A stretch of 64,000 nucleotides of DNA from a virus. The notes under the pieces are model-generated. The model searched no databases, was not told the origin of the DNA, and worked only from the letters and a program-made list of their open reading frames with translations. Position 1 is the first letter of the stretch, and every line of letters starts with the position of its first letter. This document shows positions 34,136 through 62,695 of this stretch, piece after piece. Made by a program: the position numbers and the translations under genes. The DNA is taken from the UHGV virus genome UHGV-0057547. One strand, given 5' to 3'.

Positions 34136-35567
34136 ATAATGTCTCCTATATTAAGTGATTAGTATAGCAAATCTTTTGAATTGCTGGAAACTCCTAAAGC
34201 TCAATTCACTACAACGTAAGGTTAAATCCTAAGCGTGAATGTTACGAAAGTAGAAAAAAGTAATTGAGATGGTATAAGGTTAAATCCTAAGTACTTTTAC
34301 AATGGACAATCAGCAGGTAAGATTTATATTTATTTTACTTTACTTTTAATAATTAATTTCGTATAATTTAAGTAAATGGAGGTGAAATATTATGGCATGG
34401 AAATATGAAGATGTGAAAAAGTATGTAGAATCATTTGGTTATAAATTAATATCAAAAGAATATAAGACTTGTAAAGATAAACTTCATTTAATGTGTCCTA
34501 ATGAAAGTGATTTTATTGTAAGATTTGATAATTTTAAAAATGCTAAACAACGTTGTAAATGTGATAAATGTAAAGGTAGAAATCCAAGAATGTTTTCTTA
34601 TGAATATGTAAAAGAATACATAGAAAAAGAAGGGTATAAATTAATATCAAAAGAATACAATGGAAATAAAAAACGTATAGAATTAGAATGCCCAAATGGT
34701 CATAAATGGAAAGTAAGATTTACTGATTTTAAAAATGGAAGAAGATGTTATTATTGTTCTTGTTGTTATAAACCTACCATTGGAGAAATTAGAATGAGAT
34801 TATCAAAATATGGTTATACATTGTTATCTGAAGAATATAAAAATGCAAATGAAAAAATTAATGTAAAATGCCCTAATGGTCATAAATATCCTACTACATA
34901 TCATAATTTTGATAATGGTAAAAGATGTCCATACTGTTATAATAAATATAGTAAAGGTGAGTATAGACTTATAAATTTATTTAATAATTATAAAATAAAC
35001 TATAAACATCAATATATTTTTAATGATTGTAGAGATATAAATCCTTTGCCATTTGATTTTTATTTATATGATTATAATTGTTGTGTAGAATTTGATGGAG
35101 AAGGGCATTATGAACCTAGAAATTGGAATGGAGCTTCAGATGAAAAAGCAATAGAAACATATAAAATAACGGTATTACATGATAAAATTAAAACACAATA
35201 TTGTAAGGATAATAGCGTAAAACTCATAAGAATACCATATTGGGAATTTAATAATATAGAAAACATTATTTGTCAAGAATTAAATATTAAAAGAAAACAA
35301 AGAAGAAAAGGTAATAAATTAAAATAAATATGAATAAACTTCAACGACTAAGTATCCTAGTAGTCTAGGTAGAGGAAGAGGTCTTATATTAATAAGATTG
35401 TGATATAGTCTGCTCTCATGCGAAAGCATGAGCAGTTCATAAAAGAACGGATAGAATAGTAACGATATTCTATTGAACATAAGGAATCTTATAAAGGAGA
35501 AGATAGCTAAAGAGCTATGTTCTCAATCGAAAATGTTAAATAGAGAAATTGCTAAAGTAGTCACTGG
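34136..35567 (+). mobile_element. Group I intron carrying a Zn-ribbon/DUF559 homing-endonuclease ORF (3' end approximate)
   Basis: P1 gagat/gtctc, P2 ctatattaagtgattagtatag; conserved 5' and 3' cores flanking the ORF. Confidence 0.55.
34392..35327 (+). CDS. Homing endonuclease, Zn-ribbon repeat modules plus DUF559/Vsr-like PD-(D/E)xK nuclease domain
   Basis: Three modules YEYVKEYIE..GYKLISKEY...CPNGH...F..FKNG.RC; C-terminal PLPFDFYL...VEFDGEGHYE...KLIRIPYWEF. Confidence 0.6.
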   Translation: MAWKYEDVKKYVESFGYKLISKEYKTCKDKLHLMCPNESDFIVRFDNFKNAKQRCKCDKCKGRNPRMFSYEYVKEYIEKEGYKLISKEYNGNKKRIELECPNGHKWKVRFTDFKNGRRCYYCSCCYKPTIGEIRMRLSKYGYTLLSEEYKNANEKINVKCPNGHKYPTTYHNFDNGKRCPYCYNKYSKGEYRLINLFNNYKINYKHQYIFNDCRDINPLPFDFYLYDYNCCVEFDGEGHYEPRNWNGASDEKAIETYKITVLHDKIKTQYCKDNSVKLIRIPYWEFNNIENIICQELNIKRKQRRKGNKLK

Positions 35568-35631
35568 TACTAATGAAACAGTGGTTATCTTTAACAATGG
35601 TAGTACCATTCAAGTTTAATGCTTTGCACAT
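35568..35631 (+). CDS. terL: Terminase large subunit, exon e35 (boundaries approximate)
   Basis: Only open frame; phases fit e34 (1-nt) and e38 (2-nt carry-over); P1 gcacat/gtgtgt. Confidence 0.35.
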
Positions 35632-35877
35632 TGAGTAATTAGTGTGTATAACCGATTGAATTGCTTGTAAATCCTAAAGCTAACTAAACTACAACGTAAC
35701 CTGAAAAGGTAAGCGTGAATGTAGCGAAAGCAGAAAAAATTAGTTAGATGGTATATGGTTAAATCCTAAGTACTTTTACAATGGAAGTCTAGCAGGGAAG
35801 ATTCTAAAATTATTTAAATTAAATATTTGACTTTTAATAATATAAGTTGTATAATATAAATAAATGGAGGTGATAAT

Positions 35878-36834
35878 ATGTCAAAAATAATGTGGGATGA
35901 AAAATCAATAAAAAAATTTGTTGAGCAATATAATCATGAATTCATTGAAATTATAGAATTTAATAACATAAGAAGTTTAATAAAAATTAAATGTAAAAAT
36001 AAAAAACACAAACCATTTGAAATAAAATTTACATCATTTAGACAAACTATGCTAAAAAATGGAAATTCTTGCAAAGAATGTAAAAAAGAAGCAAAAATGT
36101 TAAAAAGAGAAGATGTAGAAAACCTAATTAGAGAAAGAGGACTTATTTGGCTAGAGGGAGAGTATATAAGTAATGATACAAAAAATTTATTAGTATGGTG
36201 TGGAAATATTAATCATGAACCATTTTTAACAAGTCAAAATTATATATTATGTAATAATGGTAATAGTTGCAAAAAATGTGGTATAGAAAATAATGCAAAT
36301 AACAAAAGACTTTCATATGAGTATGTATATAACTATATAAAAAATGAGGGTGATGAACTATTATCAAAAACTTATGTAAACAATTCACAAAATTTAAAAA
36401 TTAAATGTGGTAAATGTAATAATGTATTTGAAACTTCATTTGGGCACTATCAAAATAAAGATAGAAGATGCTTATGTAAAGCTCAATCAAGAGGAGAATA
36501 TGAAATTAAACGAATATTTGATAAATATAATTTAATTGAAAATGTAGATTATGAATGTCAAAAAAAATACGAAGGATTAATTGGGGTTGGTGGTAGAAAA
36601 CTTTCTTATGATTTCTATATCAATAATACATTAATAGAATATCAAGGTTCTTATCATGATGGAACTGCTAGAAAACAAACAGATGAAGGATATGAGATAC
36701 AAAAGGAACATGATAAAAGAAAAAAAGATTATGCTAAAAATAATAACATTAATTTATTAGAGATATGGTATTGGGACTTTAATAATATAGAAAATATACT
36801 TATAGAAAATTTTAATTTAAATAATAATGAATAA
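35878..36834 (+). CDS. Homing endonuclease, Zn-ribbon repeats plus DUF559/Vsr-like domain
   Basis: Same modular architecture as 34392..35327; C-terminal LSYDFYI...IEYQGSYHD...NLLEIWYWDF. Confidence 0.55.
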   Translation: MSKIMWDEKSIKKFVEQYNHEFIEIIEFNNIRSLIKIKCKNKKHKPFEIKFTSFRQTMLKNGNSCKECKKEAKMLKREDVENLIRERGLIWLEGEYISNDTKNLLVWCGNINHEPFLTSQNYILCNNGNSCKKCGIENNANNKRLSYEYVYNYIKNEGDELLSKTYVNNSQNLKIKCGKCNNVFETSFGHYQNKDRRCLCKAQSRGEYEIKRIFDKYNLIENVDYECQKKYEGLIGVGGRKLSYDFYINNTLIEYQGSYHDGTARKQTDEGYEIQKEHDKRKKDYAKNNNINLLEIWYWDFNNIENILIENFNLNNNE

Positions 36835-37086
36835 CCTTCAACGAACAAGTATCCTAGTAGTCTAGGTAGTGGTCGGTATCCTTAGTAAAGGATAATGATA
36901 TGTTCTGCTCTCATGTGAAAGCATGAGCAGTTTATGTGATTAATTAAAATTCACAAATAAACGGTATAAGGTATAACGAACCTTATATGAACACAAATGC
37001 AGTAAACGCTTCTCAAAATACAAGAGGTAAATTTTTCATATCACTTTACATTTTTTAATAATTAGAGTATAATATAAACAAAGGGG

Positions 37087-37956
37087 GTGATTGAATTGAA
37101 ATGGACTAAGGATATGGAGCAATACTTAATTGATAATTATAATAAATTAACTATTGAAGAATTAGCTAAAAATATAGGAGTAACAAAATCCTCAATAATA
37201 AATAAAGCTTTTTCATTAAAAATAACAAATAATGTTAAAAATAAAGATAGAGGAAATATTAATATATTTAAAAATATAAATTCAGAAGAAAGTGCTTATT
37301 GGTTAGGATTTATATATGCTGATGGTTATATAGTTAAAAGTGAAAATGATAAAAAACATCATAATTATGAATTAGGTATAGAACTTCAAGAATCTGATAT
37401 TTCTCATTTGAAAAAATTTAATAAAATATTTAATGATTATTATAAAATAAAAACAAGAATCAGAAAAATGGATTCATTGGATATTTTAAATGGAAATGAA
37501 GTTTCAAATAGATTAAATAAAACTTGTTTGATAAGAATATATAATAAAGAAATAGTTAATGATTTAATAAAAAATAATATTGTTCAAAATAAAACTAATT
37601 CAGATATATTTCCTATTATAGATGATGACAATATGTTTTTACATTTTTTAAGAGGATATATTGATGGCGATGGTTCTTATGTTGTTGATAGTAAAAATAG
37701 ATACATAATATCAATTCAAGGTAATAATAAAAAATGTTTTGAATTTATATCTAATAAGTTATTAACAAGTTTTAATATTAATTCATATATAACAAAAGAT
37801 AAAACAGGTTGGAAATTAAATATAAGAAAAAAAGATGATGTTTTAAAATTAATAGATTTAATGTTTAATAATTCAAATATTTATTTAGATAGAAAATATG
37901 AGAAAGTAAAAGATATGAAAAAAGCCGTCTTTAATAGAAATATTAAAGATAATTAG
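37087..37956 (+). CDS. LAGLIDADG homing endonuclease (double-motif, single-chain)
   Basis: Two LAGLIDADG motifs: LGFIYADGYI and LRGYIDGDGS; GTG start after RBS aaaggggg. Confidence 0.7.
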   Translation: MIELKWTKDMEQYLIDNYNKLTIEELAKNIGVTKSSIINKAFSLKITNNVKNKDRGNINIFKNINSEESAYWLGFIYADGYIVKSENDKKHHNYELGIELQESDISHLKKFNKIFNDYYKIKTRIRKMDSLDILNGNEVSNRLNKTCLIRIYNKEIVNDLIKNNIVQNKTNSDIFPIIDDDNMFLHFLRGYIDGDGSYVVDSKNRYIISIQGNNKKCFEFISNKLLTSFNINSYITKDKTGWKLNIRKKDDVLKLIDLMFNNSNIYLDRKYEKVKDMKKAVFNRNIKDN

Positions 37957-38280
37957 AGAACAAAATCGGTCATAGTAAATCGTAAGATTAAGCTGATAAG
38001 AGAGCCTAAGTCCTTATAGGATATGGTAATACCGAGGTAAGATAGAAAATTAAAAAGTTCTATCCACCGTAACGCATAGAGATTGAACCTTTGTGAGAAC
38101 TATTATACAATAGTTCTTTTTTAATTACAAAGAATAAAATATCTCCAAGAGTGTTCTCCACCTTATCATTAAGTTGAAGGTGAAAATATATGCTGGACTG
38201 GGTATGAATTGACATACCATAATGCGAGGAAACTCCTAGAACTAGAGGATAAAAAGCCTTTAGGATAACAAAACGTTAAG

Positions 38281-38325
38281 ATGCCATGTACTCGTGGTTG
38301 ATGAGTATAGAATGATACAAGGAGT
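38281..38325 (+). CDS. terL: Terminase large subunit, exon e38 (Walker B ..CHVLVVDEYRMIQG)
   Basis: Open frame; ends ggagt paired to IGS gctcc of the next intron. Confidence 0.45.
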
Positions 38326-39865
38326 AATATATAGCTCCCTATGTTTATAAAAAGCATAGAAAAACTCTTTAATTGCTGGAAACTCCTAAAGTCCTATAAA
38401 CTACAACATGATTAGAAATAATGAGTGTGAATGTTACGAAAGTAGAAAAAATTATAGGAATGGTATATGGTTAAATCCTAAGTACTTTTACAATGGACAA
38501 TCAGCAGGTAAGATTTATATTTATTTTACTTTACTTTTAATAATTAATTTTGTATAATTTAAGTAAATGGAGGTGATAAAATGTTAAAATATAATAATGA
38601 TTATATTATCAATTATATAAATGAAAATTATAAAAATTTTAAAATAGTAAGTATAGATGGTAATGGAAAGGAAGCTATTGTAACTTTATGGTGTGGCGTT
38701 AGTGGTCATAAACATATACAATGCACATTTGCTAATCTTTTATATAAAGATAGTTTTCACTGTAGAGAATGTAAAAAAGATGATAAGATAAACGAAATAA
38801 AAAAGATTATAGGTGATGAATATCAAATAATCTCAATAGATTATATTAGTAATGATTGGATAAGAAGTAGAGCTATATTATGGTGTGGAATAGAAGGACA
38901 TGAATATATTGATGTATCTTTTAAATCAATAATAAATGGAAATATTATTGGATGTAAATTATGTAGAAAAAATAAACATATATTAAAAATAAAAGAAAAT
39001 GTAGAAAAAGTTAATAAAAAATTAATAGAAGTAAAAAAATATAATGAAAAAGATTATCACAAATCAAGAATAATAGTATCTTGTGGTAATGAAAAACATG
39101 AATTAATAGAGACTTCTTTAAATAAAATTATAAATTCAAACGTTAAATGTAAGGATTGCATAAAAGAAGATAATATTAATAAAATGATGCTATATATAAA
39201 TTCTACTCAATACAAATTTAATAAAATTGTAAAATATTGTGAATCAGATTATATAAAAAGTATGGTAGAAATAACATGTCCAAAAGATGAAACCCACATA
39301 TTTACAATGAGATTTTCTAATTTTAAATATGAAGGTAAAAGATGTCCTCATTGTGGTATGACTTATGGTGAACAAGAAGTTGCAAATGTATTAAAAAGAT
39401 ACAATATAAAATATAAATTTCAATATAAATATAAAGATTGTAGATTTATAAATCCTCTTCCTTTTGATTTTTATTTACCTGATTATAACATATTAATTGA
39501 ATACGATGGTAAACAACATTATGAATCAGTAGATTTATTTGGTGGAGAAAAAGGTTTTAAATATACAAAACAAAATGATGGAATAAAAAATCAATACTGT
39601 AAGAATAATAATATAAAATTAATAAGGATACCATATTGGTGTTTTAATAATATAGAAGAAATATTAATTAAAGAATTAAAAGTAAACATAAATAAATATG
39701 AATAAACTTCAACGACTAGAACGTAAGTTCGTAGGGTGTAAGTGATTGACACTCGAAATGGGAGTTACCTAATAATAGGTAGTGATATAGTCTAGTCTCA
39801 TATGAAAGTATGAGCAGTTCATAAGAGAACGTACATAACGTAGCGAATTATGTAGAATATAACGG
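38326..39865 (+). mobile_element. Group I intron carrying a Zn-ribbon/DUF559 homing-endonuclease ORF
   Basis: P1 ggagt/gctcc, P2 ctatgtttataaaaagcatag, conserved cores, P7 GACTA/TAGTC; ends ...gaatataacgg. Confidence 0.6.
38581..39705 (+). CDS. Homing endonuclease, Zn-ribbon repeats plus DUF559/Vsr-like domain
   Basis: Four Cys-pair modules; C-terminal PLPFDFYLPDYNILIEYDGKQHYE...NNIKLIRIPYWCF. Confidence 0.6.
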   Translation: MLKYNNDYIINYINENYKNFKIVSIDGNGKEAIVTLWCGVSGHKHIQCTFANLLYKDSFHCRECKKDDKINEIKKIIGDEYQIISIDYISNDWIRSRAILWCGIEGHEYIDVSFKSIINGNIIGCKLCRKNKHILKIKENVEKVNKKLIEVKKYNEKDYHKSRIIVSCGNEKHELIETSLNKIINSNVKCKDCIKEDNINKMMLYINSTQYKFNKIVKYCESDYIKSMVEITCPKDETHIFTMRFSNFKYEGKRCPHCGMTYGEQEVANVLKRYNIKYKFQYKYKDCRFINPLPFDFYLPDYNILIEYDGKQHYESVDLFGGEKGFKYTKQNDGIKNQYCKNNNIKLIRIPYWCFNNIEEILIKELKVNINKYE

Positions 39866-40021
39866 TTTTGATACATTAAACTCAGTATTAAGACCATTCT
39901 TAAACTGTGTTAGAATACCAAAATTTAAGAATAGAGATGATGGAAAATATGCAGATTATCCATCAGAGGAAAACCAAGAGATTTATTTGAGCAGTGCATT
40001 AAAACTAGTGCAAACTATGGT
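39866..40021 (+). CDS. terL: Terminase large subunit, exon e39
   Basis: 52-codon open frame in AT-rich DNA; phases consistent with both flanking exons. Confidence 0.45.
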
Positions 40022-40341
40022 GAAATGTAGATAGCTATAGTTGAGTATCAATCAAAATCGGTCATATGTATAGTGATATACATGGTAAGAAAGACTAAGT
40101 GTTAATTTAACATAAGTTGATACCGAGGTAAGTTAAGGAACTAAAAAGCCTTATCCACTGTAACGCATAGAGATTGAACCTTTGCAAGAACTATTATATA
40201 ATAGTTCTTTTTTAATTGCAAAGAATAAAATATCTCCAAGAGTGATTGACACACGCTACATTTATTGTGTGAAAATATATGCTGAACTTATAGGAAACTA
40301 TAAGAACTAAAGGATAAAAAGCCTTTAGGATAACAATTTGG
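40022..40341 (+). mobile_element. Standalone ORF-less T-family intron (element T3); 5' boundary 40022 or 40033
   Basis: P1 atggt/gctat, caaaatcggtcatatg block, about 300 nt, shares covarying hairpins with T1, T2 and T4; both boundary choices give a consistent terL frame. Confidence 0.45.
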
Positions 40342-41428
40342 GTTCGAGAATCATTGGAGTTATGACCTCTATTCTTCCCATGTTAAGAAAATGTTAGCAG
40401 GTGATGATTATTTTGTATGTAATTTACCTTATCAATTATCTGCTTATCATGGAATATTAACTAAAAAAAGAATACAAGATATTTTATCAGATGAGAATAT
40501 GTCGGAAATATCATTTATGATGGAATTTGAAGCATTATTTTATTCTGATAAAGATACTAGTTATTTTAAATCAAGTGACATATTACCTTGTAGAACATTG
40601 GAATATGCATGGTATCCTCCAACACCTGAGGAATATTATAGAAATAAAAATAAAGAGAAAAAGAGTTATCATTTGAAGAAATTAAATGATAAAGAACTTA
40701 GAATAATTAGTTGTGATATAGCCTTAATGAATAGTAAAAATGGACATGACAACGATAATGCCGTATTTACTTTTATAAGAAGTATTCCAAAGAATCAAAA
40801 TTATATATCACAAGTTTTATGGCAGGAAACCTATGATGGTTGTACAGCTAAACAATTAGCATTAAATATAAAAAGATTATATTTTGACACTCAAAGTGAT
40901 TATATAGTACTAGATACTGCCGGTAATGGGATATCTGTGTTAGATGAGTTAGGTGAATATACAACAGATGTAGAAAGAGGAATAGTTTATCCTCCATTGA
41001 AAGCAATGAATGATGAAAAATATGAAGAACGTTGTGGTTATTCTGAGGCACAAAAATCTATATTTTGTGTTAATGGTAACTCAAAGTTTAACCACGAAAT
41101 TGCAGTAACCCTTAAAACAGCATTTCAAAATAAAACCATTAGATTATTAAAAACACAATTTGAAGCAGATGACTTTATAGAAGGATATCATAAGATGTCT
41201 CCTAAAGAACAAGCTGACAAATTAATGCCTTATATTCAAACTTCTTTAATGCAAGATGAAATAACTCAATTGGAATATGAAATAAAAGATTCTTATATTA
41301 AACTTTATGAAACCACAGGTAAACGTAAGGATAGATATTCAAGTTTAGCTTATGGTAATTATTTTATAAGAGAAAGAGAAAAAAAATTAAAGAAAAAGAA
41401 AAAAGGTGGATTAGCTAATCTATGGTAG
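40342..41428 (+). CDS. terL: Terminase large subunit, final exon (C-terminal RNase H-like nuclease domain)
   Basis: RIISCDIALMNS..GHDNDNA, LDTAGNGIS and DRYSSLAYG catalytic-Asp regions typical of TerL nuclease domain. Confidence 0.65.
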
Positions 41429-42364: not shown

Positions 42365-43679
42365 AACATATAGCTCCCTATGTTTATAAAAAGCATAGAA
42401 AACTCTTTTAATTGCTGGAAACTCCTAAAGCTCAATTCACTAAAACATAATCTGAAAATGATAAGTGTGAATGTTACGAAAGTAGAAAAAAGTAATTGAG
42501 ATTACCCAAGGTTAAATCCTAAAGGTGAATGAATGGACAATCAGCAACCAAGATTTTAAGTTTAATTCATTGATTTTTAATATAATATAAAATAAAGTGA
42601 GGTAATTAATATAGCATTAAAATGGACTGAAGAAAAAATAATAGAATTTATAAATAATGAAAATTATATAGTAAAAAAAATAATAAGTGGAATTGGAAAA
42701 GAAACGAGATTATTGGTATGGTGTGGTAATCCTAATCATAAACCATATAAAGTTATTTTTAATAATTTTAAAAGAGGAACAAGATGTCAGTCTTGTTATG
42801 ATGAAAGAAGAAGAAAATGGACTGATGAAATTATTAAAGAATATTTAGAAAGTTATAAATATAAACTAATAGAAATTATAAAATCTAAAGGCGTTCAATC
42901 TATTGTAAAAATAAAATGTCCTAAATGTGGATATGTATATACTATTAAATTTGATACATTTAGAAATGGTCGTAGATGTATGCAATGTTTTCTTAAAGAA
43001 AATAGAATTAGTGAAGAAGAAATAAAAAAAATAATAAAAGATAATAAAGATATATTAATAGATATTGAGTATCATAGTTTAGATAGTATTTTATATTTAT
43101 ATTGTAATAAATGTAAAAAAAATTATCCTATTACATTTTATTGGTATTTAAAAGGCGGAAGATGCAAGTTTTGCAAAGAATCAAGAGGGGCTAGAAAAAT
43201 AAGAGAATATTTAGAAAATAAACAATATAATTTTAAACAAGAATTTAGAATTAAAGAATGTAGATATAAATTTCCATTACCATTTGATTTTATGGTTACT
43301 ATAAATGATAATATTATTTTAATAGAATTCGATGGGTTAGAACATTATGAACCTATTGAGTATTTTGGAGGTATAGTTAAATTTAATGAAAGAAAAAGAA
43401 ATGATAATATTAAAAATCAATATTGTAAAGATAATAATATAAAACTTATAAGGATTCCATATTGGGAATATGACAACATAGATGAAATATTAAATAAAGA
43501 ATTAAACTTAAAATAAGGTTCAACGACTAGAGCGTAAGCTCGTAGAGTGTAAGTGATTGACACTCGAAATGGAGAGTATCTAATAATAGGTAGTGATATA
43601 GTCTAGTCTCATATGAAAGTATGAGCAGTTCATAAGAGAACGGATTAGGAGTAGCGACCCTAATTGAATACAACGTTTG
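42365..43679 (+). mobile_element. Group I intron carrying a Zn-ribbon/DUF559 homing-endonuclease ORF
   Basis: P1 ggagt/gctcc; cores as in the other type-1 introns; 3' end aacgtttg fixed by reading frame. Confidence 0.6.
42713..43516 (+). CDS. Homing endonuclease, Zn-ribbon repeats plus DUF559/Vsr-like domain; conserved N-terminal region extends to an ATA at 42611 behind a good RBS (possible start-codon mutation)
   Basis: TTG at 42713 is the first canonical start; upstream in-frame IALKWTEEKIIEF matches paralog N-termini. Confidence 0.5.
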   Translation: MVWCGNPNHKPYKVIFNNFKRGTRCQSCYDERRRKWTDEIIKEYLESYKYKLIEIIKSKGVQSIVKIKCPKCGYVYTIKFDTFRNGRRCMQCFLKENRISEEEIKKIIKDNKDILIDIEYHSLDSILYLYCNKCKKNYPITFYWYLKGGRCKFCKESRGARKIREYLENKQYNFKQEFRIKECRYKFPLPFDFMVTINDNIILIEFDGLEHYEPIEYFGGIVKFNERKRNDNIKNQYCKDNNIKLIRIPYWEYDNIDEILNKELNLK

Positions 43680-44241
43680 TGTAAATACTAACCCTTTGAA
43701 AGTACAAGCATTAACATTACAAAGAACTGGTAATGTAAATGCAAGTAATAGACAAACATTAACTGAATTAGTTTATAATAATTCAGGTGTTAATAGTGAG
43801 ATATTCAATGGTAATCAAAGTAATAACCAAGCTATACTTACTGGAGTAACAGCAGATGAAATATATTGTGATGTTTTAAATAATGTATTTGAAAACTATA
43901 CTAAATATAGAGTAAAACAATTAAAAAGAAATCCTTTATGGATGGTTAGATTTGTAAGAAACACTCAATACAATAAACAAACTTTAGTAACAGAATCAAT
44001 GCAAGGTTGTACAGTAGGATTATCAAGAATGAAATTTTTAGCTTGTAATCATTATGCACCATTAGAAGCATTATCATTACTTGAATTTGAAACTGAAAAT
44101 GGTATAGATGAATTCTTTGTACCTCTAGCTACTTCTTACACTCAAAGTGGAGATGAAGAAGAAGAATTAGGTAGACCTAAGAATTCAGAAAACCCTGATA
44201 ATCAAAAAGATGTTGGCGAGAATCCTGATAGCACTAAATAA
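43680..44241 (+). CDS. Portal protein, exon 2
   Basis: Frame continuity with exon 1 across the intron. Confidence 0.5.
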
Positions 44242-44327
44242 TACTTCATTTTTCGATATTTTATTAAAAATATCGTCTTATAAATAATATGTAAGATTGA
44301 CATTTTTCAAAGGAGAGTGTTGCTTTT

Positions 44328-44522
44328 ATGCTTGTTTATACGACTGATGAAAGTATAAAAGATAAATTGTTAGATAATAAACAAGTTCTAAAAAAACAAA
44401 AAGAAGTTAATGGAGAAATGATTTATGTATTCTTTATTAATGATATGAGTTTATTAAATAGAAATTTTAGTAAAGAAGAAAATAGTAAAATAATATTAGT
44501 AAATAACAAATTTACCTTCTAA
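44328..44522 (+). CDS. Hypothetical small protein
   Basis: ORF with RBS aaaggagag. Confidence 0.3.
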   Translation: MLVYTTDESIKDKLLDNKQVLKKQKEVNGEMIYVFFINDMSLLNRNFSKEENSKIILVNNKFTF

Positions 44523-44523
44523 T

Positions 44524-45098
44524 TTGAAAGGAGGTGTAATTATGAATAACAAACTTAGATTACCTATTAAAAGATTTGAAAGTACAGATGAAGTTTTAGT
44601 TAATACAAACTTTAAAAAAGTTAAAATATACATTATGCATACAGGTGAAAACCTTAATGGTTCTGTATTTTCAGTAGATAGTATAAATGATTCAATAGAT
44701 ACACTTGCAAACATTCCAATATTGGCATTTGTTGAAAAAACTGATGGACAAGATAACAAAGATTTTGCAGGACATGAAACTGATTTAGATATATTTACAG
44801 ATGAAGATGGAACAATTAAAGTAAGAGAATACTATAAAGAAGTACCTATTGGAGTAATACCTGAAAGTAATGATTATTTCTTTGAAGAAAAAGATGGAGA
44901 AACATACTTAGGGTGTTATGGTTACATATGGAAATGTTATTCTAATGATGCTTATGACATATTAGAAGAAGACCAAGAAAAAGAAGTCTCTATGGAAATT
45001 TATATAAATAATTGTTCTTATGATAGAAAACAAAGATGTAATATTAATAAATTTGAATTTCTTGGAGTTACAGTGTTAGGTGCTAAATACCCAGGAGT
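44524..45098 (+). CDS. Prohead protease/scaffold-like protein, exon 1
   Basis: Position between portal and capsid genes; exon ends ggagt paired to gctcc. Confidence 0.4.
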
Positions 45099-45491
45099 GA
45101 TTAGCTCCCTATATGGAGTGATTCATATAGCAAACTCTCTGAATTGCTTGTAAATCCTAAAGCTAACTAAACTACAACGTGATTGGAAACAATGGGCGTG
45201 AATGTGGCGAAAGCAGAAAAAATTAGTTAGATGGTATATGGTTAAATCCTAAGTACTTTTACAATGGAAGTCTAGCAGGTAAGATTCTAAATTACTATAA
45301 GTGATATGAATAAACTTCAACGACTATTGAAATAATTGTAAGAACCTTATTACAATTAAAGTAAAGTACATTCAAGTGAATGGAAGTAGAGAGTGTCTTA
45401 TTTAATTAATGTAAGATAATGATATAGTCTCAACGTTTAGCGAAAGCTAAAGAAGTTCATAAGAGAACTGCATAAGAATAACGAACTTATG
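45099..45491 (+). mobile_element. ORF-less group I intron (3' boundary within 45483-45509)
   Basis: P1 ggagt/gctcc, P2 ctatatggagtgattcatatag, complete 5' and 3' cores without ORF. Confidence 0.55.
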
Positions 45492-46707
45492 TGAAGATAT
45501 TGCTATGGGGGAAGATTGTGTACTTAGTATGAATTTTTCTAAAGAAGATAGTGAATATAAAGAATATTTATCTTCTGTTGAAAAATTAAATAAATTATTA
45601 AAATGTCAAAGAGAGGAGGGATTAAGTGTGGATGTAAATAAAGAAACTTCTACTGTTGAAAACAAAGAAGAATTTGCTGAAGAAAACAAAGATGAAGAAG
45701 TTTGTCCTGAATGTGGTGAAAATCCTTGTGTATGCAAAAAAGAAAATCATGCAGTTAATGATGATGAAGAAGATAAAGCAGATGACAAAAAAGATGATGA
45801 TAAAGAAGACGATAAAGACAAAGAAGATGAATCTTGTAAAAAGAAAAATCATGCAACTGAAGATAAAGCAGATGATGATAAAAAAGACGATAAAGCAGAT
45901 GACGAGGAAGACGACGACAAAGATGATGATAAATCAGATGAAGAAGATGACAAAGATAAAGACAAAGAAGATGAATCTTGCAAAAAGAAAAATCATACAG
46001 TAGAAGATGACAAAGCAGACTTTGGACTTTCTTTAAATAATACATTTAAAGCTATAAGAAAACAATTAGAATCTTACACTTATGAATATGTGAGCTATTG
46101 GGGTGACACTTATACTTGGAGAAAATATTACGTAGTAGAATTAATCCCTGAAGATTCTGTTGTTGTTATAGAAGATGAAGAAGAAAATGAATTCTATGGA
46201 GTAACTTATTCTATAAATAATGATGATGTTACTTTAGATTTGGATAATAAAGCATTATATATTCAAGAATGGAGACCTAAAGAAACTAGTTCTGCTAGAT
46301 TTGAAAATACTGATAAAAAAGAAAAATATACTGCTAAAGATGAAATGTATCAAGCAGTTGGAAAAGAATTAAAAGAACTTAGACAATTTAAAGCTGATAT
46401 AGAAGCTCAAGAAGAAAAGGCTCAATTCGATGAAAAAGTTAATGCTATCTTATCACAATTTGAATTCAATGAAGAAGAAACTTCTGATTTAGTAGAAAAA
46501 GTTTATAACAAATCAATTAATTTAGATATGTTTGAAACTTGCTTATTTGCTTTAGAAGCTAAAAAGAATAGAGCAGAAAAAGAAAAATTTGCTAAAATGG
46601 AAAAAGAAAACAGTTTAAATATAGTTGATTCTAAAAAAGAAGAACCAGCAAAACCAAAATCAAGATTTGATTATCTATTAAAAGAATTTGGAAACAAAAA
46701 TAAATAA
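45492..46707 (+). CDS. Prohead protease/scaffold-like protein, exon 2 (acidic tandem repeats, coiled-coil C-terminus)
   Basis: Three repeats of KEDESCKKKNH.(T/V)EDKADD; scaffold-like composition. Confidence 0.4.
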
Positions 46708-46726
46708 TAAAAGGAGCATGAAAAAC

Positions 46727-47251
46727 ATGGATGTAAAAAATATAGTTAGATTAGACATAATCGAAGGTAAACCAAGAACATTTGTTCATAGTGAAAACTT
46801 ACAAAATGGACTTTTCCTAGAAATAGATGGAAAAGTTGAAAATGCTGTACTAGGAGTTGAAGCTGATTATGAAGCTTATAAAGTTAAATTAGCTACTGCT
46901 GATACTAAAAGAGCTAATTTATTATTCCATTGCAGTGTTGCAAACCAATACGATGAAAGAAAATTACCTTGCGAATTTGAATTAGAAGCAGGTAGACCAG
47001 GAAGAGGATATCAACCAGTTTTAGGTGATATAGTTACAATACCTGAAGCATTAGTTGCTGATACAGTAGTTGAAAAAGACGAATTAAAATTAGGAGCAGA
47101 TGGTAAATTAGCTAAAGCTACTACTGGTGACACTGTAATAGCTGTTGTTGAAGCTAAAGAAGACATAGTAATACCTATGTATAAATATGAATTTGGAAAA
47201 CAAGGTGTAGACGATACAGTACAAAAATCATTAGTAATAAGATTTGTATAA
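46727..47251 (+). CDS. Hypothetical virion protein (possible head decoration protein)
   Basis: Position between scaffold and major capsid genes. Confidence 0.35.
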   Translation: MDVKNIVRLDIIEGKPRTFVHSENLQNGLFLEIDGKVENAVLGVEADYEAYKVKLATADTKRANLLFHCSVANQYDERKLPCEFELEAGRPGRGYQPVLGDIVTIPEALVADTVVEKDELKLGADGKLAKATTGDTVIAVVEAKEDIVIPMYKYEFGKQGVDDTVQKSLVIRFV

Positions 47252-47287
47252 AATATAAAATAAATAAAATATAAGATAAAAAGGAGA

Positions 47288-47737
47288 ATGAGACGAATGT
47301 CAGAATTAAATATAACTGATGTAAGAGATATGGCTTACAGTCTATATAAAGGTAAAACTGCTAATTTCGATGCAGAATCTGCAAATGAAGCTATAAAAAA
47401 TATAATACTTAAAACAGCTGGATGTGAAGATGGTTGGGATATGTATAAATTCATGGATAACAAATACAAAGTATTTGCTATAATGAGAGAAATATTAACT
47501 CCAGTTGTAGCTGAAAATGTTTTAGCTAGATTTGAATCTTGGGTAGACATAGAAGATATAGCTTTAGGTGATACTAAAGACTTTGAAGTTATGAACCAAG
47601 AATTATTTGAAATAGGATATGTAGCTGATGGTACTTCTGAATTAAGAAGACAAAACTTAACTCATGGTAAAATTACTATGACTGGTTTCCAATTAGGTGC
47701 TAAATTATATACTGAATTTGATGACTTTAGAAGGGGT
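47288..47737 (+). CDS. Major capsid protein, exon 1
   Basis: Position and size; exon ends ggggt paired to IGS gcccc (compensatory change relative to ggagt/gctcc). Confidence 0.5.
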
Positions 47738-49092
47738 AACTTAGTTTACTAGACAGCCCCCTATGTTTGTAAAAAGCATAGCAAATCCTTTTAATTGCTG
47801 GAAACTCCTAAAGCTCAATTCACTACAACGTAAGGTTAAATCCTAAGCGTGAATGTTACGAAAGTAGAAAAAAGTAATTGAGATTACCCAAGGTTAAATC
47901 CTAAAGGTGAATGAATGGACAATCAGCAGGGAAGATTTTAATTAACACTTAATTTTTTATAAGTTTATGAGTATAATATAAATAAGTGGAGGTGATGAAA
48001 ATGACAAGAAAGATTTGGAATGAAATTACAATAAAAGAATTTATAGAAAATGAAACAAATTATAAATTCATATCAATGGTTAAATTAAATGGAATGAAAT
48101 CAATAGTGCTAGTATGGTGCGGTAATACTAATCATAAACCTTATAAAGTTCGATTTGATGCATTTAAAGGTACTTCTAAAAAAGAAGGAACGAGATGTGA
48201 ACAATGTAGAAGAGAAAAGGATACTATTTGGACTAAAGATGAAATTATAAAATATGTAGAATCTCAAGATTATAAATTTATAAGATTTGTAAAATTTAAT
48301 AAATATGCAAGTATAATAGAAATTCAATGTAATAAAGGACACGAATCATATGAAACATACTTTAGTAATTTCTATAATAATAGAAGATGTTTTCAATGTC
48401 ATATAATATGGTCTAAAAAAGATATTATTAATTTTATAGAATCTCAAAATTATAAATTTATAAGATTTATAACATATGAAAAAAATAATAGTTTAATAGA
48501 GATAAAGTGTCCTAAAGGACATATGAATCAAGTTAGATTTAGAAAATTTAAAGAAGGAACTAGATGCACAGAATGTAATAAGTCTAAAGGTGAGGAAAAA
48601 GTAAAAGATATATTAAAAGAAATGTGTATAGATTTTAAATCACAATACAAATTCAAAGATTGTAAATGTAAAAAAGAGTTGCCATTTGATTTTTACATAC
48701 CTTCATTAAATATTGCAATAGAATATGATGGAATACAACATTTTGAAATATTACCACATTGGGGTGGTATTGATAAACTTATAGAAACTAAAATACATGA
48801 TGAAATAAAAACACAATATTGTAAAAGAAAAAGAATAAAACTTATTAGAATTCCTTATTGGGAATTTAAAAATATAGAAAACATACTTATAAAAGAATTA
48901 GTGTTAAATTAGAATAACCTTCAACGACTAGAGCATAAGCTCGTACACTCAAGTGGGTGGAAATGGAGGATACCTAGAAATAGGTAGTGATATAGTCTTG
49001 TCTCATGTGAAAGCATGAGCAGTTCATAAGAGAACGGATTAGGAGTAACGACCCTAGTCGAAAATAAACGCAGAACTGATTTTGCTGAATGG
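47738..49092 (+). mobile_element. Group I intron carrying a Zn-ribbon/DUF559 homing-endonuclease ORF
   Basis: P1 ggggt/gcccc; P2 ctatgtttgtaaaaagcatag; 3' end ...gattttgctgaatgg fixed by frame. Confidence 0.6.
47986..48912 (+). CDS. Homing endonuclease, Zn-ribbon repeats plus DUF559/Vsr-like domain
   Basis: ELPFDFYIPSLNIAIEYDGIQHFE...KRIKLIRIPYWEF. Confidence 0.6.
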   Translation: MEVMKMTRKIWNEITIKEFIENETNYKFISMVKLNGMKSIVLVWCGNTNHKPYKVRFDAFKGTSKKEGTRCEQCRREKDTIWTKDEIIKYVESQDYKFIRFVKFNKYASIIEIQCNKGHESYETYFSNFYNNRRCFQCHIIWSKKDIINFIESQNYKFIRFITYEKNNSLIEIKCPKGHMNQVRFRKFKEGTRCTECNKSKGEEKVKDILKEMCIDFKSQYKFKDCKCKKELPFDFYIPSLNIAIEYDGIQHFEILPHWGGIDKLIETKIHDEIKTQYCKRKRIKLIRIPYWEFKNIENILIKELVLN

Positions 49093-53253: not shown

Positions 53254-54610
53254 AATTTGCTCCCTATGTAAGTAAATTGCATAGCAAATCCTTTTAATTG
53301 CTGGAAACTCCTAAAGCCTTGCAAACCACAACGCAACTTGAAAAAGTAAACGTGATGGTGACGAAAGTAGAAAAAATTGTAAGGATTACCCAAGGTTAAA
53401 TCCTAAAGGTGAATGAATGGACAATCAGCAGGTAAGATTTATATTTATTTTACTTTACTTTTAATAATTAATTTCGTATAATTTAAGTAAATGGAGGTGG
53501 TAGATATAAAATGGACAGAAGATAGAATTAAAGAATATGTTGAAAATCAAGGATATACTTATATAAAAAGAATTGAAGGAAAAGCAAGTATGTCGATTAT
53601 AGAAGTTTGGTGTGGAAATCTTAATCATAAATCTTATAGGGTTATGTTTAAAAATTTTAAAGGTAATAAAGCAAAAAAACCAACAAGATGCCCATATTGT
53701 AGTAAAAATAAAAAATTAACCATTGAAGAAGTAAGAGTATTTGTTGAAAAATATGATTTTAGTTTATTATCTGTAGAATATATTAATAATAGAACTCCAT
53801 TAACACTACAATGTAAAAATGGACATATATTTTCAATAAGATTAGATAATTTTAAACAAAGTTTAAAATGTCCAATGTGTTATAGACATTATGGTGCTTA
53901 CACCGAAGATGAAGTTAAGCAATACCTTGAAAGTTTTGGTTATGAATTACTGAATAAATATATAGATATACATAAAAAAATAATAATTAAATGCCCTAAA
54001 GGTCATATTTATAAAACTTCATTTAATAGTTTTAAAAATAATGGAACTAGATGTTCTATTTGTAGAAAATCAAAAGGTGAAGAAAAAATATCTAAAACAT
54101 TAAAAGAATTAAAAATAAAATTCATAAGTCAATTTGTATTCGATGATTGTCAATATAAAACATATCTTCCATTTGATTTTTATTTACCTGAATATAATAT
54201 ATTAATTGAATACGATGGGATTCAACACTATGAACCTGTAGACTTTGGTGGTAAAGGAAATGAATGGGCAAATAAACAACTCGAATTAACAAAAATAAAA
54301 GACAATATAAAAACACAATATTGTGAAAATAATAATATAAAACTTATAAGAATATCTTATTGGGAATTTGATAGCATAGAAAATATATTAAGTAAAGAGT
54401 TAAAAGTAAGAAAATAAATATGAATAAACTTCAACGACTATTCCGTAAGGAAGTAAAGCCACAAGCTATTGGTGGAAGAAATGGAGGATACCTAGAAATA
54501 GGTAGTGATATAGTCTGTTCTCATGTGAAAGCATGAGCAGTTTATATTGAATGAGTATAAACGATGTATGTGTAGCGAACATATGTGAACACAAAGATAA
54601 CTATATATCA
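53254..54610 (+). mobile_element. Group I intron carrying a Zn-ribbon/DUF559 homing-endonuclease ORF (3' end approximate)
   Basis: P1 ggagt/gctcc, P2 ctatgtaagtaaattgcatag; cores and P7 present. Confidence 0.55.
53491..54417 (+). CDS. Homing endonuclease, Zn-ribbon repeats plus DUF559/Vsr-like domain
   Basis: YLPFDFYLPEYNILIEYDGIQHYE...NNIKLIRISYWEF. Confidence 0.6.
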   Translation: MEVVDIKWTEDRIKEYVENQGYTYIKRIEGKASMSIIEVWCGNLNHKSYRVMFKNFKGNKAKKPTRCPYCSKNKKLTIEEVRVFVEKYDFSLLSVEYINNRTPLTLQCKNGHIFSIRLDNFKQSLKCPMCYRHYGAYTEDEVKQYLESFGYELLNKYIDIHKKIIIKCPKGHIYKTSFNSFKNNGTRCSICRKSKGEEKISKTLKELKIKFISQFVFDDCQYKTYLPFDFYLPEYNILIEYDGIQHYEPVDFGGKGNEWANKQLELTKIKDNIKTQYCENNNIKLIRISYWEFDSIENILSKELKVRK

Positions 54611-56042: not shown

Positions 56043-56468
56043 GTGATTGAATTGGTTTTTGATTCAATGGAGCAACTAGAAGCATATGTATTAAAGGCAA
56101 TGGATGATTGTGCTAAATTAAGTGCAAAAAAAATGTTAGACATAATGACAGATGAATTAGAAAATAGAATTTATAATAATTATTCACCTAACCTATATGT
56201 AAGAACAGGTGATTTGATGAATACACCTCAAATAATTTCTGCTGATTCAACTGGAATGCATACTGAATTTGTAGATAATGGTGGTTGGTTTAGTTTAGTA
56301 AGTGCAACAAAAGGGCAACATTTCTTTGCTTTAGAAGGATTAGAAGGTGGTCATTCTTGGGGAAGAGAAGCAACAAATGCTTACCCATTTGCTTACACTA
56401 GATGTCTTTCTGAAATACCCGACTATTATAGAAGTTGTTTAGTGGCATTTGGGATACCAATAGTTTAA
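56043..56468 (+). CDS. Tail assembly chaperone-like protein (second of pair)
   Basis: Gene order; overlaps TMP start. Confidence 0.35.
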   Translation: MIELVFDSMEQLEAYVLKAMDDCAKLSAKKMLDIMTDELENRIYNNYSPNLYVRTGDLMNTPQIISADSTGMHTEFVDNGGWFSLVSATKGQHFFALEGLEGGHSWGREATNAYPFAYTRCLSEIPDYYRSCLVAFGIPIV

Positions 56469-56502
56469 TCAATCTATTAATAAGAAAGAGTGGTGGTAAT
56501 TT

Positions 56503-59500: not shown

Positions 59501-61630
59501 ATTTAAATAAACAACTAGAAGCCGTTAAAGATTTAATGTCACTTAAAAATATGGACACTAGTGGTATAGATACTTTAATAGAAAGAACTAAAAAATTATC
59601 AAGTTTAAGCGTAGATAAAATAGGTCAAGAGTTTAAGGAAATACAAAATGCACTTGGTAAAGAAATTAATTTACGTTTAGGTTCTAGTGGTATCAAAGAT
59701 ATAGAATCTGCATTAAAAGTTATATTACAATATAGAAATGAATTAAAAAATAAAATAGCAGTTGAAACAGATTCGTCAAAAGTAAAAGACCTTAATAACC
59801 AATTAGAAAAAACTGAGAATATAATAGAAAAGCTTAAAGGTCAAACTAGTGGTGGACTTGGTGCAAGTTTAATTAGCGATGCTAATAATAATAACTTAAA
59901 ACAATTAGAAGATACTGCTAATGGATTAGAGAAAACATTCTCTAATTTAGAAAATGAAGTAAATAAATTAAACAGCGAAGCATTGAATAAGGTTGACATA
60001 AGTCAATTAAGGGAAATGAATGAAGTTGTTAATGATGTAAAGAAAAATTTAGCATCTATTGGAGAAGGAAATGTTAATGTTGATTCAATAAATAAAACAG
60101 CACAAGATATAGAAAAATTAAAAAGACTAATAGAAAACACTAAAAAGACAATTAGTGATATGAAATTAGAAGTTTCATTTAATATTAAATCAAATGAAGC
60201 AGAACAATATTTAGCAGGTTTTGAATCAGCTTTATTAAGATTAGGTAAATCAACTAGTGGAATAAATGATTTAAAAAGTGAATTTGAAAGTATAAAAAAT
60301 TCAGCTAACGGAAATTTAAGTAGTGCCATAAAAATGATTGATGACTTTATTAATAAATTAAAACAAATGGGTAGCAAACAAGGTCTAGGTAATATAAGTG
60401 GTACTATATCTCAATATAAACAATATGCTAAAGAATTACAACAAGCTATGAGTGGAGCATTGAAATCTAGTGGTTCTGATACAGCTAAAGGATTTGAACA
60501 ACAAGCTGATAGAATAAAAAATGCTATGCAACGTTTAACTTCAAGTTTCAAAGAATCACAAAGAGAATCGGCTAATGCTTTTAACAGTAGTTCATTTAGT
60601 GGTTTTTCTTCTAAATATGAAGCTGAAATAAATAAAGTTGAAAAAAGTATAAACAGATTTAAATCATCAATGCAAAATTTAGATAAAGCTGTAAACTTCA
60701 AAAGTTTCCAAAGTGATGTAGGTAGAGGTTTATCTGAACAATTTGACCAAATAATGGCGAAAGCCGAACAATTAAGAGATAAACTAAAGAGTGCATTATC
60801 TTCAGGTACATTTGATATAAGTGAAATAAATAGAATAAAAGATGAATTAAAACAAGTTGAACAAGAAGCAGATTCATTAAAACAAAAATCTATTGTATTG
60901 AAATGTGCCGAAAGTATATCTGAATTAGAAAAGCTTAGTAGTAAACTAAGAGATATAGGTGGAGATACATCACAAATAGACAGATTAAGAGATGAATTTG
61001 TTTCACTTGGTTCAGGTATAAAAGAGGGTACTGCTGGAATAGATGATGCAATTTCTAAACTGAAATCTTTATCTTCGGAAGCACAAAGAACTTTTAGTTC
61101 TTTTGAATCATCTACTGGTAAAATAGGTTCTTTTGGTTCTAAAATACAAGGTTTCTTTGGTTCTATTAAGGATTCATTTAGGAATTTTACTATTGGTGAA
61201 TTAATGGCTGATGGTATAAATCAAGCTGTTTATCAAATAAAAGATACTATATCAGGTTTAGATGAAGCAATGTCCGAATTTAAAAGGGTTGCTCCTGATA
61301 ACTTTAGTTTAAACACATCTAACTTACAAAGTGTTGCTAATGAAGCAAGAGAAATAGGTATTAGTGTTGGGCAATCAGTAGAAGATGTTATCACTGGAAT
61401 GAGTACTGCATTACAAGCTGGTGCAGGCGACATTAAAACAGCTTCTGAAATAGCTAAAAGTTCTGCTATATTCCAAAATGTTACAGATATGGATGCAAAA
61501 AGTGCCTCAAAAGCTATTTCTTCAATGGTTAACCAATATTATGATATGGATTCAGCATTAAATCAAGTTGACCACGGTGTAGGTAAATCTGTAAAAGGAT
61601 ACAATAACTTAACTGAAGCGATGGATTTGG
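56503..61630 (+). CDS. Tape measure protein, exon 1 (about 1709 aa; internal approximately triplicated coiled-coil module)
   Basis: Length, coiled-coil repeats, position; ORF read-through of 11 codons into the intron; P1 tggt/gccg. Confidence 0.6.
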
Positions 61631-62695
61631 TAATTGATTTGCCGTTTATATTAGAAATAATATAAATTATTAGAGGGCAAAATCGGTGAAGACTAAATAT
61701 TTTAATTTATTTACTTTTAATAAAAAATATGGTATAATAATATAAAATAGGAGGGGATATAATGAGAAGATTGAGTTATGAATATGTAAAAGAGTATATA
61801 GAAAATTTTGGTTATAAATTATTATCAAAAGAATATAAAAACAATAAAACTGAATTAGAAATACAATGTAATGATTGTGGGAATATATTCCATATGAGAT
61901 TTAACAATTTTAAAGATGGTAAACATAGATGTGAATGTAAGAGCAAACCATTAGTTTTGACATATGAATATGTTAAAAATTATATTGAATCATGTGGATA
62001 TAAATTATTATCAAAAGAATATAAAAATAATGCAACCTATTTATTGGTTTGGTGTGGAAATCCTAATCACAAACCTTATAAAGTTAAATTTAATAATTTT
62101 AAAGATTGTAATAGTAGATGTCCTGAATGTAATACAACTTCAAAAGGTGAAGAAAAAATAAAAGAAATTCTAATAAAATATAATATAAAATTTAATCAAC
62201 AATATTTATTTAATGATTGTAGAAATACAAGACCACTTCCATTTGATTTTTATTTACCACAGTATAATATTACAATAGAATATGATGGGAGACAACATTA
62301 TAAATTAGATTGTTTTAATATGAATTTATTAGATTTAATGAATTTGAAATATAATGATAATAAAAAAACACAATATTGCAATAATAATAATATAAAACTT
62401 ATAAGAATACCATATTGGGATTTTAATAATATAGAAAAAATACTTAAAAAAGAATTAAAAGTAAATTGAATAAAGTACAAGTTAATACCGAGATAACTTA
62501 TTAGATTACGAAAAGGCTAATAAGTATTGTAGAGCATAGAGGATGAATAAATATAACTCCTCCAAGAGTGTCCTCCATCCTAACGTAAAGACGAGGATGA
62601 AAATATATGCCATACTGAATTGGAATAGACCAATTGATGAAAATGAGGGAAACCTCCAGAGCATAAGATAAAAAGCTTATGGATAATAACAATAG
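61631..62695 (+). mobile_element. Type-2 (T-family) intron carrying a Zn-ribbon/DUF559 endonuclease ORF; 3' part is element T4
   Basis: P2 tttatattagaaataatataaa, caaaatcggtgaagactaa block, internal promoter, ORF, then T4 with covarying hairpins. Confidence 0.5.
61762..62469 (+). CDS. Homing endonuclease, Zn-ribbon repeats plus DUF559/Vsr-like domain (shortest paralog)
   Basis: PLPFDFYLPQYNITIEYDGRQHY...NNIKLIRIPYWDF. Confidence 0.55.
   Translation: MRRLSYEYVKEYIENFGYKLLSKEYKNNKTELEIQCNDCGNIFHMRFNNFKDGKHRCECKSKPLVLTYEYVKNYIESCGYKLLSKEYKNNATYLLVWCGNPNHKPYKVKFNNFKDCNSRCPECNTTSKGEEKIKEILIKYNIKFNQQYLFNDCRNTRPLPFDFYLPQYNITIEYDGRQHYKLDCFNMNLLDLMNLKYNDNKKTQYCNNNNIKLIRIPYWDFNNIEKILKKELKVN

Follow-up and report, generated by a model that had tools for sequence, protein, structure and literature searches.

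In the virus genome UHGV-0057547, of which a stretch of 64,000 nucleotides (the window in the following) was analysed, seven related open reading frames (ORFs) are, with a probability of about 80%, intron-encoded homing endonucleases of the family that combines CapR-like zinc ribbons with an EDxHD/Vsr-like nuclease domain. All seven paralogs, as well as a relative with an HNH-like C-terminus (HNH30286), a second HNH-like ORF and a LAGLIDADG ORF, lie inside intervening sequences, and the non-coding flanks of the ORFs sort into two sequence types, A and B. A sequence-only reading of this DNA had proposed seven paralogous homing endonucleases with repeated zinc-ribbon modules and a DUF559/Vsr-like nuclease domain; their setting in introns of essential genes is context that was absent from it. 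The window is 100% identical to part of a 204,438-bp metagenomic contig (ENA ERZ1310023 NODE_1). The endonuclease ORFs are the following:

34392-35327, plus strand: HE34392, 311 aa, three zinc-ribbon modules and a Vsr-like domain, in a type A intron of TerL (the gene of the large terminase subunit)
35878-36834, plus strand: HE35878, 318 aa, three modules and a Vsr-like domain, in a type A intron of TerL
38581-39705, plus strand: HE38581, 374 aa, four modules and a Vsr-like domain, in a type A intron of TerL
42611-43516, plus strand: HE42713, three modules and a Vsr-like domain, within the portal gene (type A intron)
47986-48912, plus strand: HE47986, three modules and a Vsr-like domain, within the major capsid (YonB-like) gene (type A intron)
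53491-54417, plus strand: HE53491, three modules and a Vsr-like domain, within the tail tube (YomU-like) gene (type A intron); its sequence was used for structure modelling
61762-62469, plus strand: HE61762, 235 aa, two modules and a Vsr-like domain, in a type B element of the tape-measure/minor-tail gene
30286-31203, plus strand: HNH30286, three CapR-type modules and an HNH-like C-terminus, within the YonG-like (p20001 homolog) gene (type A intron)
32988-33773, plus strand: ORF32988, of an endonuclease family annotated as HNH (PHROG 953), within TerL (type B element)
37087-37956, plus strand: ORF for a LAGLIDADG endonuclease, within TerL (type B element)

The seven paralogs are indeed found at the positions where they had been placed from the sequence, their ORFs are uninterrupted over 235-374 aa, and a tblastn search with the C-terminal domain returns exactly seven copies in the window. 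Also the predicted two to four copies of the N-terminal module per protein agree with the zinc-knuckle pairs, which number 3, 3, 4, 3, 3, 3 and 2 in position order from 34392 to 61762. The conserved C-terminal motif is real as well: the last ~115 aa are 32-60% identical among the paralogs (the domains are 32-60% identical also to that of the first one), and eight residues, D37, F38, E48, G51, H54, D79, K82 and Y98, do not vary among 63 homologs. D50 is an aspartate in 55 of these 63; HE35878 has EYQG instead of EYDG, and a glutamine stands there in 7/63 homologs. D37, E48, H54, D79 and K82 are the putative catalytic residues.

The C-terminal domain has a Vsr/EDxHD-like fold in the structure prediction, and to this extent its earlier assignment as a DUF559/Vsr-like nuclease stands, whereas Pfam and profile searches do not return DUF559 or Vsr. 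None of the seven proteins matches Pfam DUF559 (PF04480) or Vsr (PF03852) at E <= 0.01, with only weak matches to DUF2726 and PvuRts1I_N below the cut-off; the domain has no NCBIfam match, and PDB sequence searches with one protein and with 7- and 63-sequence profiles gave only spurious matches (ankyrin repeat, lactate dehydrogenase). Alignment of the 63-sequence profile to E. coli Vsr by hhalign is insignificant (E 0.14), and pairs PFDF...IEYDG with PDF...FTHGC, D37 being opposite Asp51 of Vsr in this weak alignment.

The N-terminal modules, ~56 aa in size and present 21 times in the seven paralogs and three times in the ORF at 30286 (counted as zinc-knuckle pairs), are Cys4/Cys3His zinc ribbons. 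In HE34392, Pfam recognises CapR (PF21817, E 2.2e-10) and DUF4379 (described as 'probable treble clef zinc finger', E 3.4e-06). These two families are recognised in four of the seven paralogs, with weaker matches on HE42713, HE53491 and HE61762 than on HE34392, and three paralogs scanned as single sequences have no Pfam module match; all seven nonetheless align as modules. Pairwise module identity is 30-60%. Module 1 of HE42713 corresponds by position to module 1 of HE47986 and of HE53491 (45-56% identity), and in HE61762 the closest relative of each module is the other module of the same protein (60%). In an AlphaFold model of full-length HE61762 (predicted local distance difference test, pLDDT, 89.5; predicted template-modelling score, pTM, 0.54), each module is predicted to form a helix-strand-strand-strand-helix unit, and the linkers are of low confidence, which is consistent with beads on a string.

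Proteins of this kind are not restricted to the virus studied here. PHROG 559, annotated as 'HNH endonuclease', matches the paralogs over their full length (E 1e-42 to 1e-68), and for these proteins the HNH label is a mislabel; further matches are phrog_9084 ('homing endonuclease') and phrog_7140 ('intron encoded nuclease'). A profile search gave 2,549 homologs of the C-terminal domain, and tblastn found homologs in 554 phage records, which include phages of Staphylococcus, Enterococcus, Streptococcus, Campylobacter, Bacillus, Lactococcus and Escherichia; in 155 of the 554, at least 80% of the protein is covered. The architecture of CapR-like modules with an EDxHD/Vsr-like domain in homing endonuclease genes (HEGs) of phage introns was described computationally in 2025 (Nucleic Acids Research (NAR), PMC12350094; PMC11878797). 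In the former study, several ~60-aa domains distantly akin to CapR/DUF4379/DUF723 are followed by a ~100-aa EDxHD/Vsr-like domain, the genes reside in self-splicing phage introns, and several homologs occur per genome (PMC12350094), and in the latter, PHROG 559 proteins with a VSR signature are found in group I introns of TerL in Bastillevirinae (PMC11878797). The protein architecture is therefore not new, and the paralogs add members to a family described in 2025.

For HNH30286, the sequence-only reading had assumed the same N-terminal modules with an exchanged catalytic domain. Three CapR-type modules (Pfam CapR E 4.7e-17) and an HNH-like tail are present, but the modules are the same only at the level of the family: they group together (43-52% identity) and reach only 25-29% identity with any of the modules in the Vsr-type proteins. 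The tail matches Pfam HNH_2 with E 0.0057 and 16.9 bits, under the cut-off of 21, and the 'HNH endonuclease' families PHROG 119, 8446 and 5200 with E 4.7e-09 to 4.8e-04; a C..VHH...N...H..FH motif is readable in it, and a PDB sequence search with the tail had no relevant match. Because of the low identity of the modules, the joining of CapR-type modules to either a Vsr-like or an HNH-like nuclease, as predicted from these sequences, appears to be real but old. More telling than this exchange of catalytic domains is the mixing and matching of endonucleases and introns, as type A hosts Vsr-type and HNH-type endonucleases and type B hosts Vsr-type, HNH-annotated and LAGLIDADG ones, with ORF32988 and HE61762 occupying the same loop of the type B element.

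The genes that harbour these elements belong to the morphogenesis module, at 28-64 kb, of a large gut phage with SPbeta and the Clostridioides phage phiCD211/LIBA as relatives. Its products match the exonuclease, TerL, portal, capsid and tail proteins of phiCD211, and precomputed Pfam labels of its genes include YonG, YonD, YonB, YomU, YomV, YomW and YomN. When phiCD211 proteins are mapped on the window, the exon order is collinear throughout, and the genes for p20001, TerL, portal, the scaffold-like p20005, capsid and minor tail/tape measure, which are unbroken in phiCD211, are split in the window exactly at the endonuclease ORFs. There are ~16 intervening sequences in 33 kb, 12 of type A and 4 of type B, distributed over the YonG-like gene (2), TerL (7), portal (1), scaffold (1), capsid (1), tail tube (2) and tape measure (2). 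TerL is divided into eight pieces, including mini-exons of 29 nt and 49 nt, and the break in its Walker A motif falls between ARG and LSKS. In phiCD211 itself (L001), a group I intron is annotated at 28891-29156, just upstream of the tape-measure gene and near the region that is interrupted in the window. The type A elements of the window are:

30023-31393, plus strand: type A with HNH30286; Rfam 28 bits on the 3' part; boundaries approximate
31677-32084, plus strand: type A, ORF-less, in the YonG-like gene; Rfam 45.7 bits; absent from L012
32402-32747, plus strand: type A, ORF-less, first TerL intron; RF00028 92.8 bits; boundaries approximate
34135-35484, plus strand: type A with HE34392, in TerL; boundaries by analogy and reading frame
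35615-36999, plus strand: type A with HE35878, in TerL; followed by a 29-nt mini-exon (37000-37028)
38325-39864, plus strand: type A with HE38581, in TerL; absent from L006 and L010
42364-43675, plus strand: type A with HE42713, in the portal gene; absent from L006, L011 and L012
45098-45502, plus strand: type A, ORF-less, in the scaffold (YonD-like) gene; absent from L012 and L013
47737-49070, plus strand: type A with HE47986, in the capsid gene; absent from L010 and L012
53253-54596, plus strand: type A with HE53491, in the tail tube gene; absent from L012
54649-55026, plus strand: type A, ORF-less, second tail tube intron, after a 52-nt mini-exon; absent from L012
62708-63088, plus strand: type A, ORF-less, in the tape-measure/minor-tail gene; boundaries by reading frame

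Apart from L001, the L numbers denote contigs of close relatives, which were retrieved from other samples by means of two window proteins and are 96-99.6% identical to the window in the shared parts. The type B elements are:

32864-34032, plus strand: type B with ORF32988, in TerL; splits Walker A (between ARG and LSKS); precisely absent from L006
37029-38275, plus strand: type B with the LAGLIDADG ORF, in TerL; absent from L006 and L010
39999-40340, plus strand: type B, ORF-less, in TerL; boundaries approximate
61632-62695, plus strand: type B with HE61762, in the tape-measure/minor-tail gene; boundaries by reading frame and analogy; followed by a 12-nt mini-exon (62696-62707)

The 12 copies of type A carry six paralogs and HNH30286 as cargo, and five copies are ORF-less. 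Rfam RF00028 is recognised at 32392-32690 with 92.8 bits (gathering score 50), and two other copies reach 45.7 and 28.1 bits. When the 12 cores are aligned after deletion of the ORFs, 61 consensus pairs are obtained, 40 of which have compensatory changes, and a long-range helix joins the sequence 5' of the ORF to the sequence 3' of it. The guide pairing covaries between sites (GGAG/GCUCC, GGGG/GCCCC, GAGA/GUCUC), and all resolved insertions end with a G. By the covariance match, the covarying core and the terminal G, the type A elements are group I introns, which are predicted to splice. A GAAYAYAA..G tail that had been considered as a shared exon motif was rejected as such, as intron-less alleles place this tail inside the type A intron. 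At 62830-62890, 31880-31920, 32550-32585 and 45285-45320, ORF-less copies contain a short remnant (..ATTCTAAGTGATAATTT..ATATGAATAAACTTCAACGAC) that is identical to the sequence after the stop codon of HE34392 and HE53491. From their sequences, the ORF-less type A introns look like deletion derivatives of ORF-bearing ones. Stretches of intron core of 65-130 nt (40270-40340, 45127-45258, 45411-45495 and 47791-47904) share 77-94% identity with DNA that has no annotation in phages of Staphylococcus, Mammaliicoccus and Listeria and in a virus from rodent faeces. The intron lineages appear to circulate widely among phages of Firmicutes.

Type B exists in four copies, three with ORF32988, the LAGLIDADG gene or HE61762 as cargo and one that is ORF-less, and HE61762 is the sole paralog housed in such an element. 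RNAalifold on the four copies predicts 51 pairs, 18 with compensatory changes, among which is a P7-like GCAUA/UAUGC helix. The junctions are canonical, the exon ending with ...GGU and the intron with ...G, and the size of ~340 nt rules out a group II intron. Type B is probably a group I intron of a subclass that is missed by the Rfam model.

Uninterrupted alleles exist at ten element sites among the close relatives. L006 exactly lacks four elements, namely the type B elements with ORF32988 and with the LAGLIDADG ORF and the type A introns with HE38581 and HE42713. The portal protein is encoded by a single 487-aa ORF in the relatives that have no intron there (L006, L011, L012), the capsid protein by an uninterrupted 335-aa ORF in L010 and L012, the tail tube protein by an uninterrupted 183-aa ORF in L012, and the scaffold protein by a single 586-aa ORF in L013. 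Cargo varies as well: the type B element at 39999-40340, which has no ORF in the window, holds a 263-aa ORF32988-like gene in L006 and L010, the sites in the tail tube gene and TerL are taken by different family members (237 and 247 aa) in other strains, L013 has its HE42713 homolog broken into two parts of 145 and 74 aa, and L012 keeps the introns of HE61762 and HNH30286 without their ORFs, a promoter relic staying in the HE61762 intron. Synonymous differences cluster at the junctions, such as GGT versus GGG and TTA versus CTT. Presence and absence of elements among genomes of such high identity implies recent movement, and the pattern of gain, decay and loss is the expected footprint of homing. 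Free-standing HEGs outside of introns, which had been a further candidate, were rejected because a covarying helix pairs the ORF flanks and the elements are exactly excised in relatives.

If the seven proteins are homing endonucleases, each would be a flexible string of two to four zinc-ribbon modules that probably bind DNA, followed by a Vsr-fold nuclease that would cleave by use of D37, E48, H54, D79 and K82. Each gene occupies a peripheral loop of an intron that is predicted to be self-splicing, with its own promoter-like site and ribosome-binding site, and splicing would remove the intron from the mRNA, by which the interrupted essential gene would remain functional. In a mixed infection, the endonuclease would cut the intron-less allele of a related phage, and repair would then copy the intron together with its gene into the cut allele, as in the known homing mechanism.

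By a rival explanation, the endonucleases would serve mainly as weapons between competing phages and less for their own propagation, cutting co-infecting relatives and dragging flanking markers along (marker exclusion, as by T4-type HEGs). The sites in essential structural genes, the highly polymorphic alleles among close relatives from several samples, and the location of the synonymous differences right at the junctions would all fit, as would, by its title, the paper 'Nuclease genes occupy boundaries of genetic exchange between bacteriophages' (PMC10448857); such a role is compatible with homing and does not exclude it mutually, and as the main explanation it is decidedly improbable. Hardly credible is a third explanation, by which the crowding of introns would be an assembly artefact that arose from mis-joining of repeated introns in metagenomic data. 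It can refer to L005, which jumps from the portal intron to the capsid intron and resembles a chimeric join through a repeat, but the identical arrangement is found on ~195-204 kb contigs from several independent samples and in the records of two assemblers, the exon order is collinear with phiCD211, and in the intron-less alleles exactly the element is missing, with the reading frame kept. In L005 (ERZ501540 NODE_53), the portal intron joins the capsid intron at 11031-12339, with window positions 43669-47754 skipped; a natural deletion was rejected as explanation for this contig, which is best read as a chimeric assembly through a repeated intron and calls for caution with assemblies of such phages.

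Expression signals of the ORFs have to be considered in some detail. Each ORF is preceded by a TTGACT/TTTACT-17 nt-TATAAT element and by GGAGGTGA, and in a promoter scan the six best plus-strand matches lie ~22-25 nt upstream of start codons of the endonuclease genes. Some of the listed starts require correction. The GTG listed as start of HE47986 falls within its own ribosome-binding site, and as the listed starts of HE47986 and HE53491 lie within or before this site, the real starts are a few codons downstream. The ORF of HE42713 had been listed from a TTG at 42713, which is too short: the frame is open upstream to 42611, and this stretch, directly 3' of the ribosome-binding site, encodes the missing N-terminal helix of module 1, with an ATA at the position of the start codon. 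HE53491 (at ~53506) is arranged in the same way, with the ribosome-binding site GGAGGTG followed by ATA AAA TGG. In both genes the ATA stands 5-7 nt past GGAGGTG, where the other paralogs have an ATG. This suggests either a non-AUG initiation that holds expression low or a recent loss of the start codon, and HE42713 and HE53491 may thus be poorly expressed or recently disabled.

Several points weigh against intron-encoded homing endonucleases as the explanation. Two paralogs (HE42713 and HE53491) have the ATA where a start codon is expected, and the total of promoter-like sites is not above that of shuffled sequence. The C-terminal domain has no sequence-level match to profiles of Vsr, DUF559 or I-Bth0305I, and in the searched literature no family member of this architecture was found that had been shown to cleave DNA. 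Presence and absence of elements could partly stem from loss instead of gain. Type B has no group I match in Rfam, a sensitive scan of the ORF-less copy (E <= 10) giving only chance-level matches. Finally, the 5' junctions of type A look unusual. In a canonical group I intron, the last base of the 5' exon is a U that is paired with a G of the internal guide sequence. Seven type A junctions, compared with intron-less alleles, have an exon G followed by an inserted T...G, and the canonical exon-final U is not there. The junctions compared in this way include 42364, 38325, 45098, 47737, 53253 and 54649; the exon ends are GGAG (four times), GGGG (once) and CTG (once), and the portal junction also fits the canonical reading. 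Opposite the guide sequence (GCUCC, GCCCC) stands a U with which the insert begins, and not the last base of the exon; at an eighth junction (31677) an exon G is followed by an insert that begins with A.

By another explanation, the proteins would be no longer, or not mainly, homing nucleases, but decaying relics or domesticated helpers (splicing maturases or regulators) in introns that persist by splicing alone. The two paralogs with ATA at the start position would fit such a state, as would the split homolog in L013, the ORF-less derivatives with promoter or 3' remnants, and the ORF-less elements of the window itself (5 type A and 1 type B of 16). However, all seven ORFs are intact, and their putative catalytic and core residues are invariant there and in the 63 homologs; the distribution of introns among nearly identical genomes implies recent movement; and a Vsr-fold nuclease with preserved acidic and histidine residues is not a known type of maturase. 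Relics or helpers are therefore an improbable explanation, and intron-encoded homing endonucleases remain the preferred one.

Beyond the structural module, the window, which has a G+C content of 22-29% over nearly its whole length and a single stretch of 34%, encodes other proteins of mobile-element or nuclease type. An IS1595/ISXO2-like transposase is encoded at 1638-2684 (plus strand, E 5.6e-09), a TnpB/IS605 OrfB-type protein at 7744-8874 (plus strand; Pfam HTH_OrfB_IS605, OrfB_IS605 and Cas12f1-like TNB, E 1e-13 to 1e-23), and a DUF4041 + T5orf172/MUG113 protein at 9013-10155 (plus strand, E 5.6e-17). The ORF at 6567-7526 (minus strand, 319 aa) is without a family match. A 780-aa ORF at 12201-14543 (minus strand) is rich in SHAEG/TTASG-type repeats, has no Pfam match and coincides with the only G+C-rich stretch (0.34 versus ~0.25). 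At 25735-27840 (plus strand), just upstream of the exonuclease and terminase genes, lies the gene of a protein of 701 aa in which a TerD domain is recognised (E 2.6e-07).

The value that the locus adds lies in its context, which is an intron-dense phage module with intron-plus and intron-minus alleles in the population, and this intron density is more notable than the proteins themselves. The family is widespread and usually mislabelled as "HNH endonuclease", and nuclease activity of its members is only predicted. Here, seven diverged paralogs occur in one genome, and for five of the seven the uncut target can be read from the intron-less allele of a near-identical phage. The locus is an experimental set for the questions of whether tandem zinc-ribbon modules read DNA modularly and how homing endonucleases reach new sites. 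That the terminase gene is split seven times, far above the two or three introns per gene that have been surveyed, bears on the intron load that a lytic phage can tolerate. A more far-reaching possibility combines three assumptions: that this is the most intron-dense phage region yet described, that the endonucleases spread by a modular, re-targetable zinc-ribbon recognition (piecewise, like zinc-finger or TALE arrays, where gain, loss and divergence of modules would give access to many unrelated sites), and that type A may use a non-canonical 5' splice site between G and U. Taken together, this is doubtful at present.

Among the known systems, the biochemically characterised one is I-Bth0305I, an EDxHD-family enzyme that is encoded in the recA group I intron of Bacillus phage 0305phi8-36 (PDB 3r3p) and has NUMOD/helix-turn-helix repeats at its N-terminus (PMC3239194). 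For the EDxHD family, the authors cited a BLASTP similarity to Vsr with E < 1e-3 (PMC3239194). The paralogs differ from it by zinc ribbons in place of the NUMOD/helix-turn-helix motifs, a match by sequence profile is undetectable, and the biochemical characterisation belongs to I-Bth0305I only. Vsr itself is, unlike the paralogs, a single-domain nicking enzyme of mismatch repair with its own zinc site and intercalating tryptophan residues. The introns of Twort-like and T4-like phages and of Bastillevirinae, like type A, match RF00028 and have the HEG in a peripheral loop, whereas the junctions of type A look non-canonical (exon G, then T...G). With regard to intron number, a survey of 2025 reported two or even three introns per phage gene at most and ~100 phage introns overall, as compared to ~16 in 33 kb and 7 in TerL in the window, and a limited literature search found no report of a comparable intron density in phage. 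The closest counterparts are the CapR-like + EDxHD/Vsr-like HEGs, with which the paralogs share the tandem modules, the Vsr-like C-terminal domain, the location in introns (with predicted splicing) and the occurrence of several copies per genome. In comparison with these, the modules number two to four instead of the reported three to five, seven paralogs and an HNH-tailed relative are found together in 33 kb, two intron types are involved, the interrupted genes are structural genes of an SPbeta/phiCD211-like phage, and close relatives supply natural intron-less target alleles.

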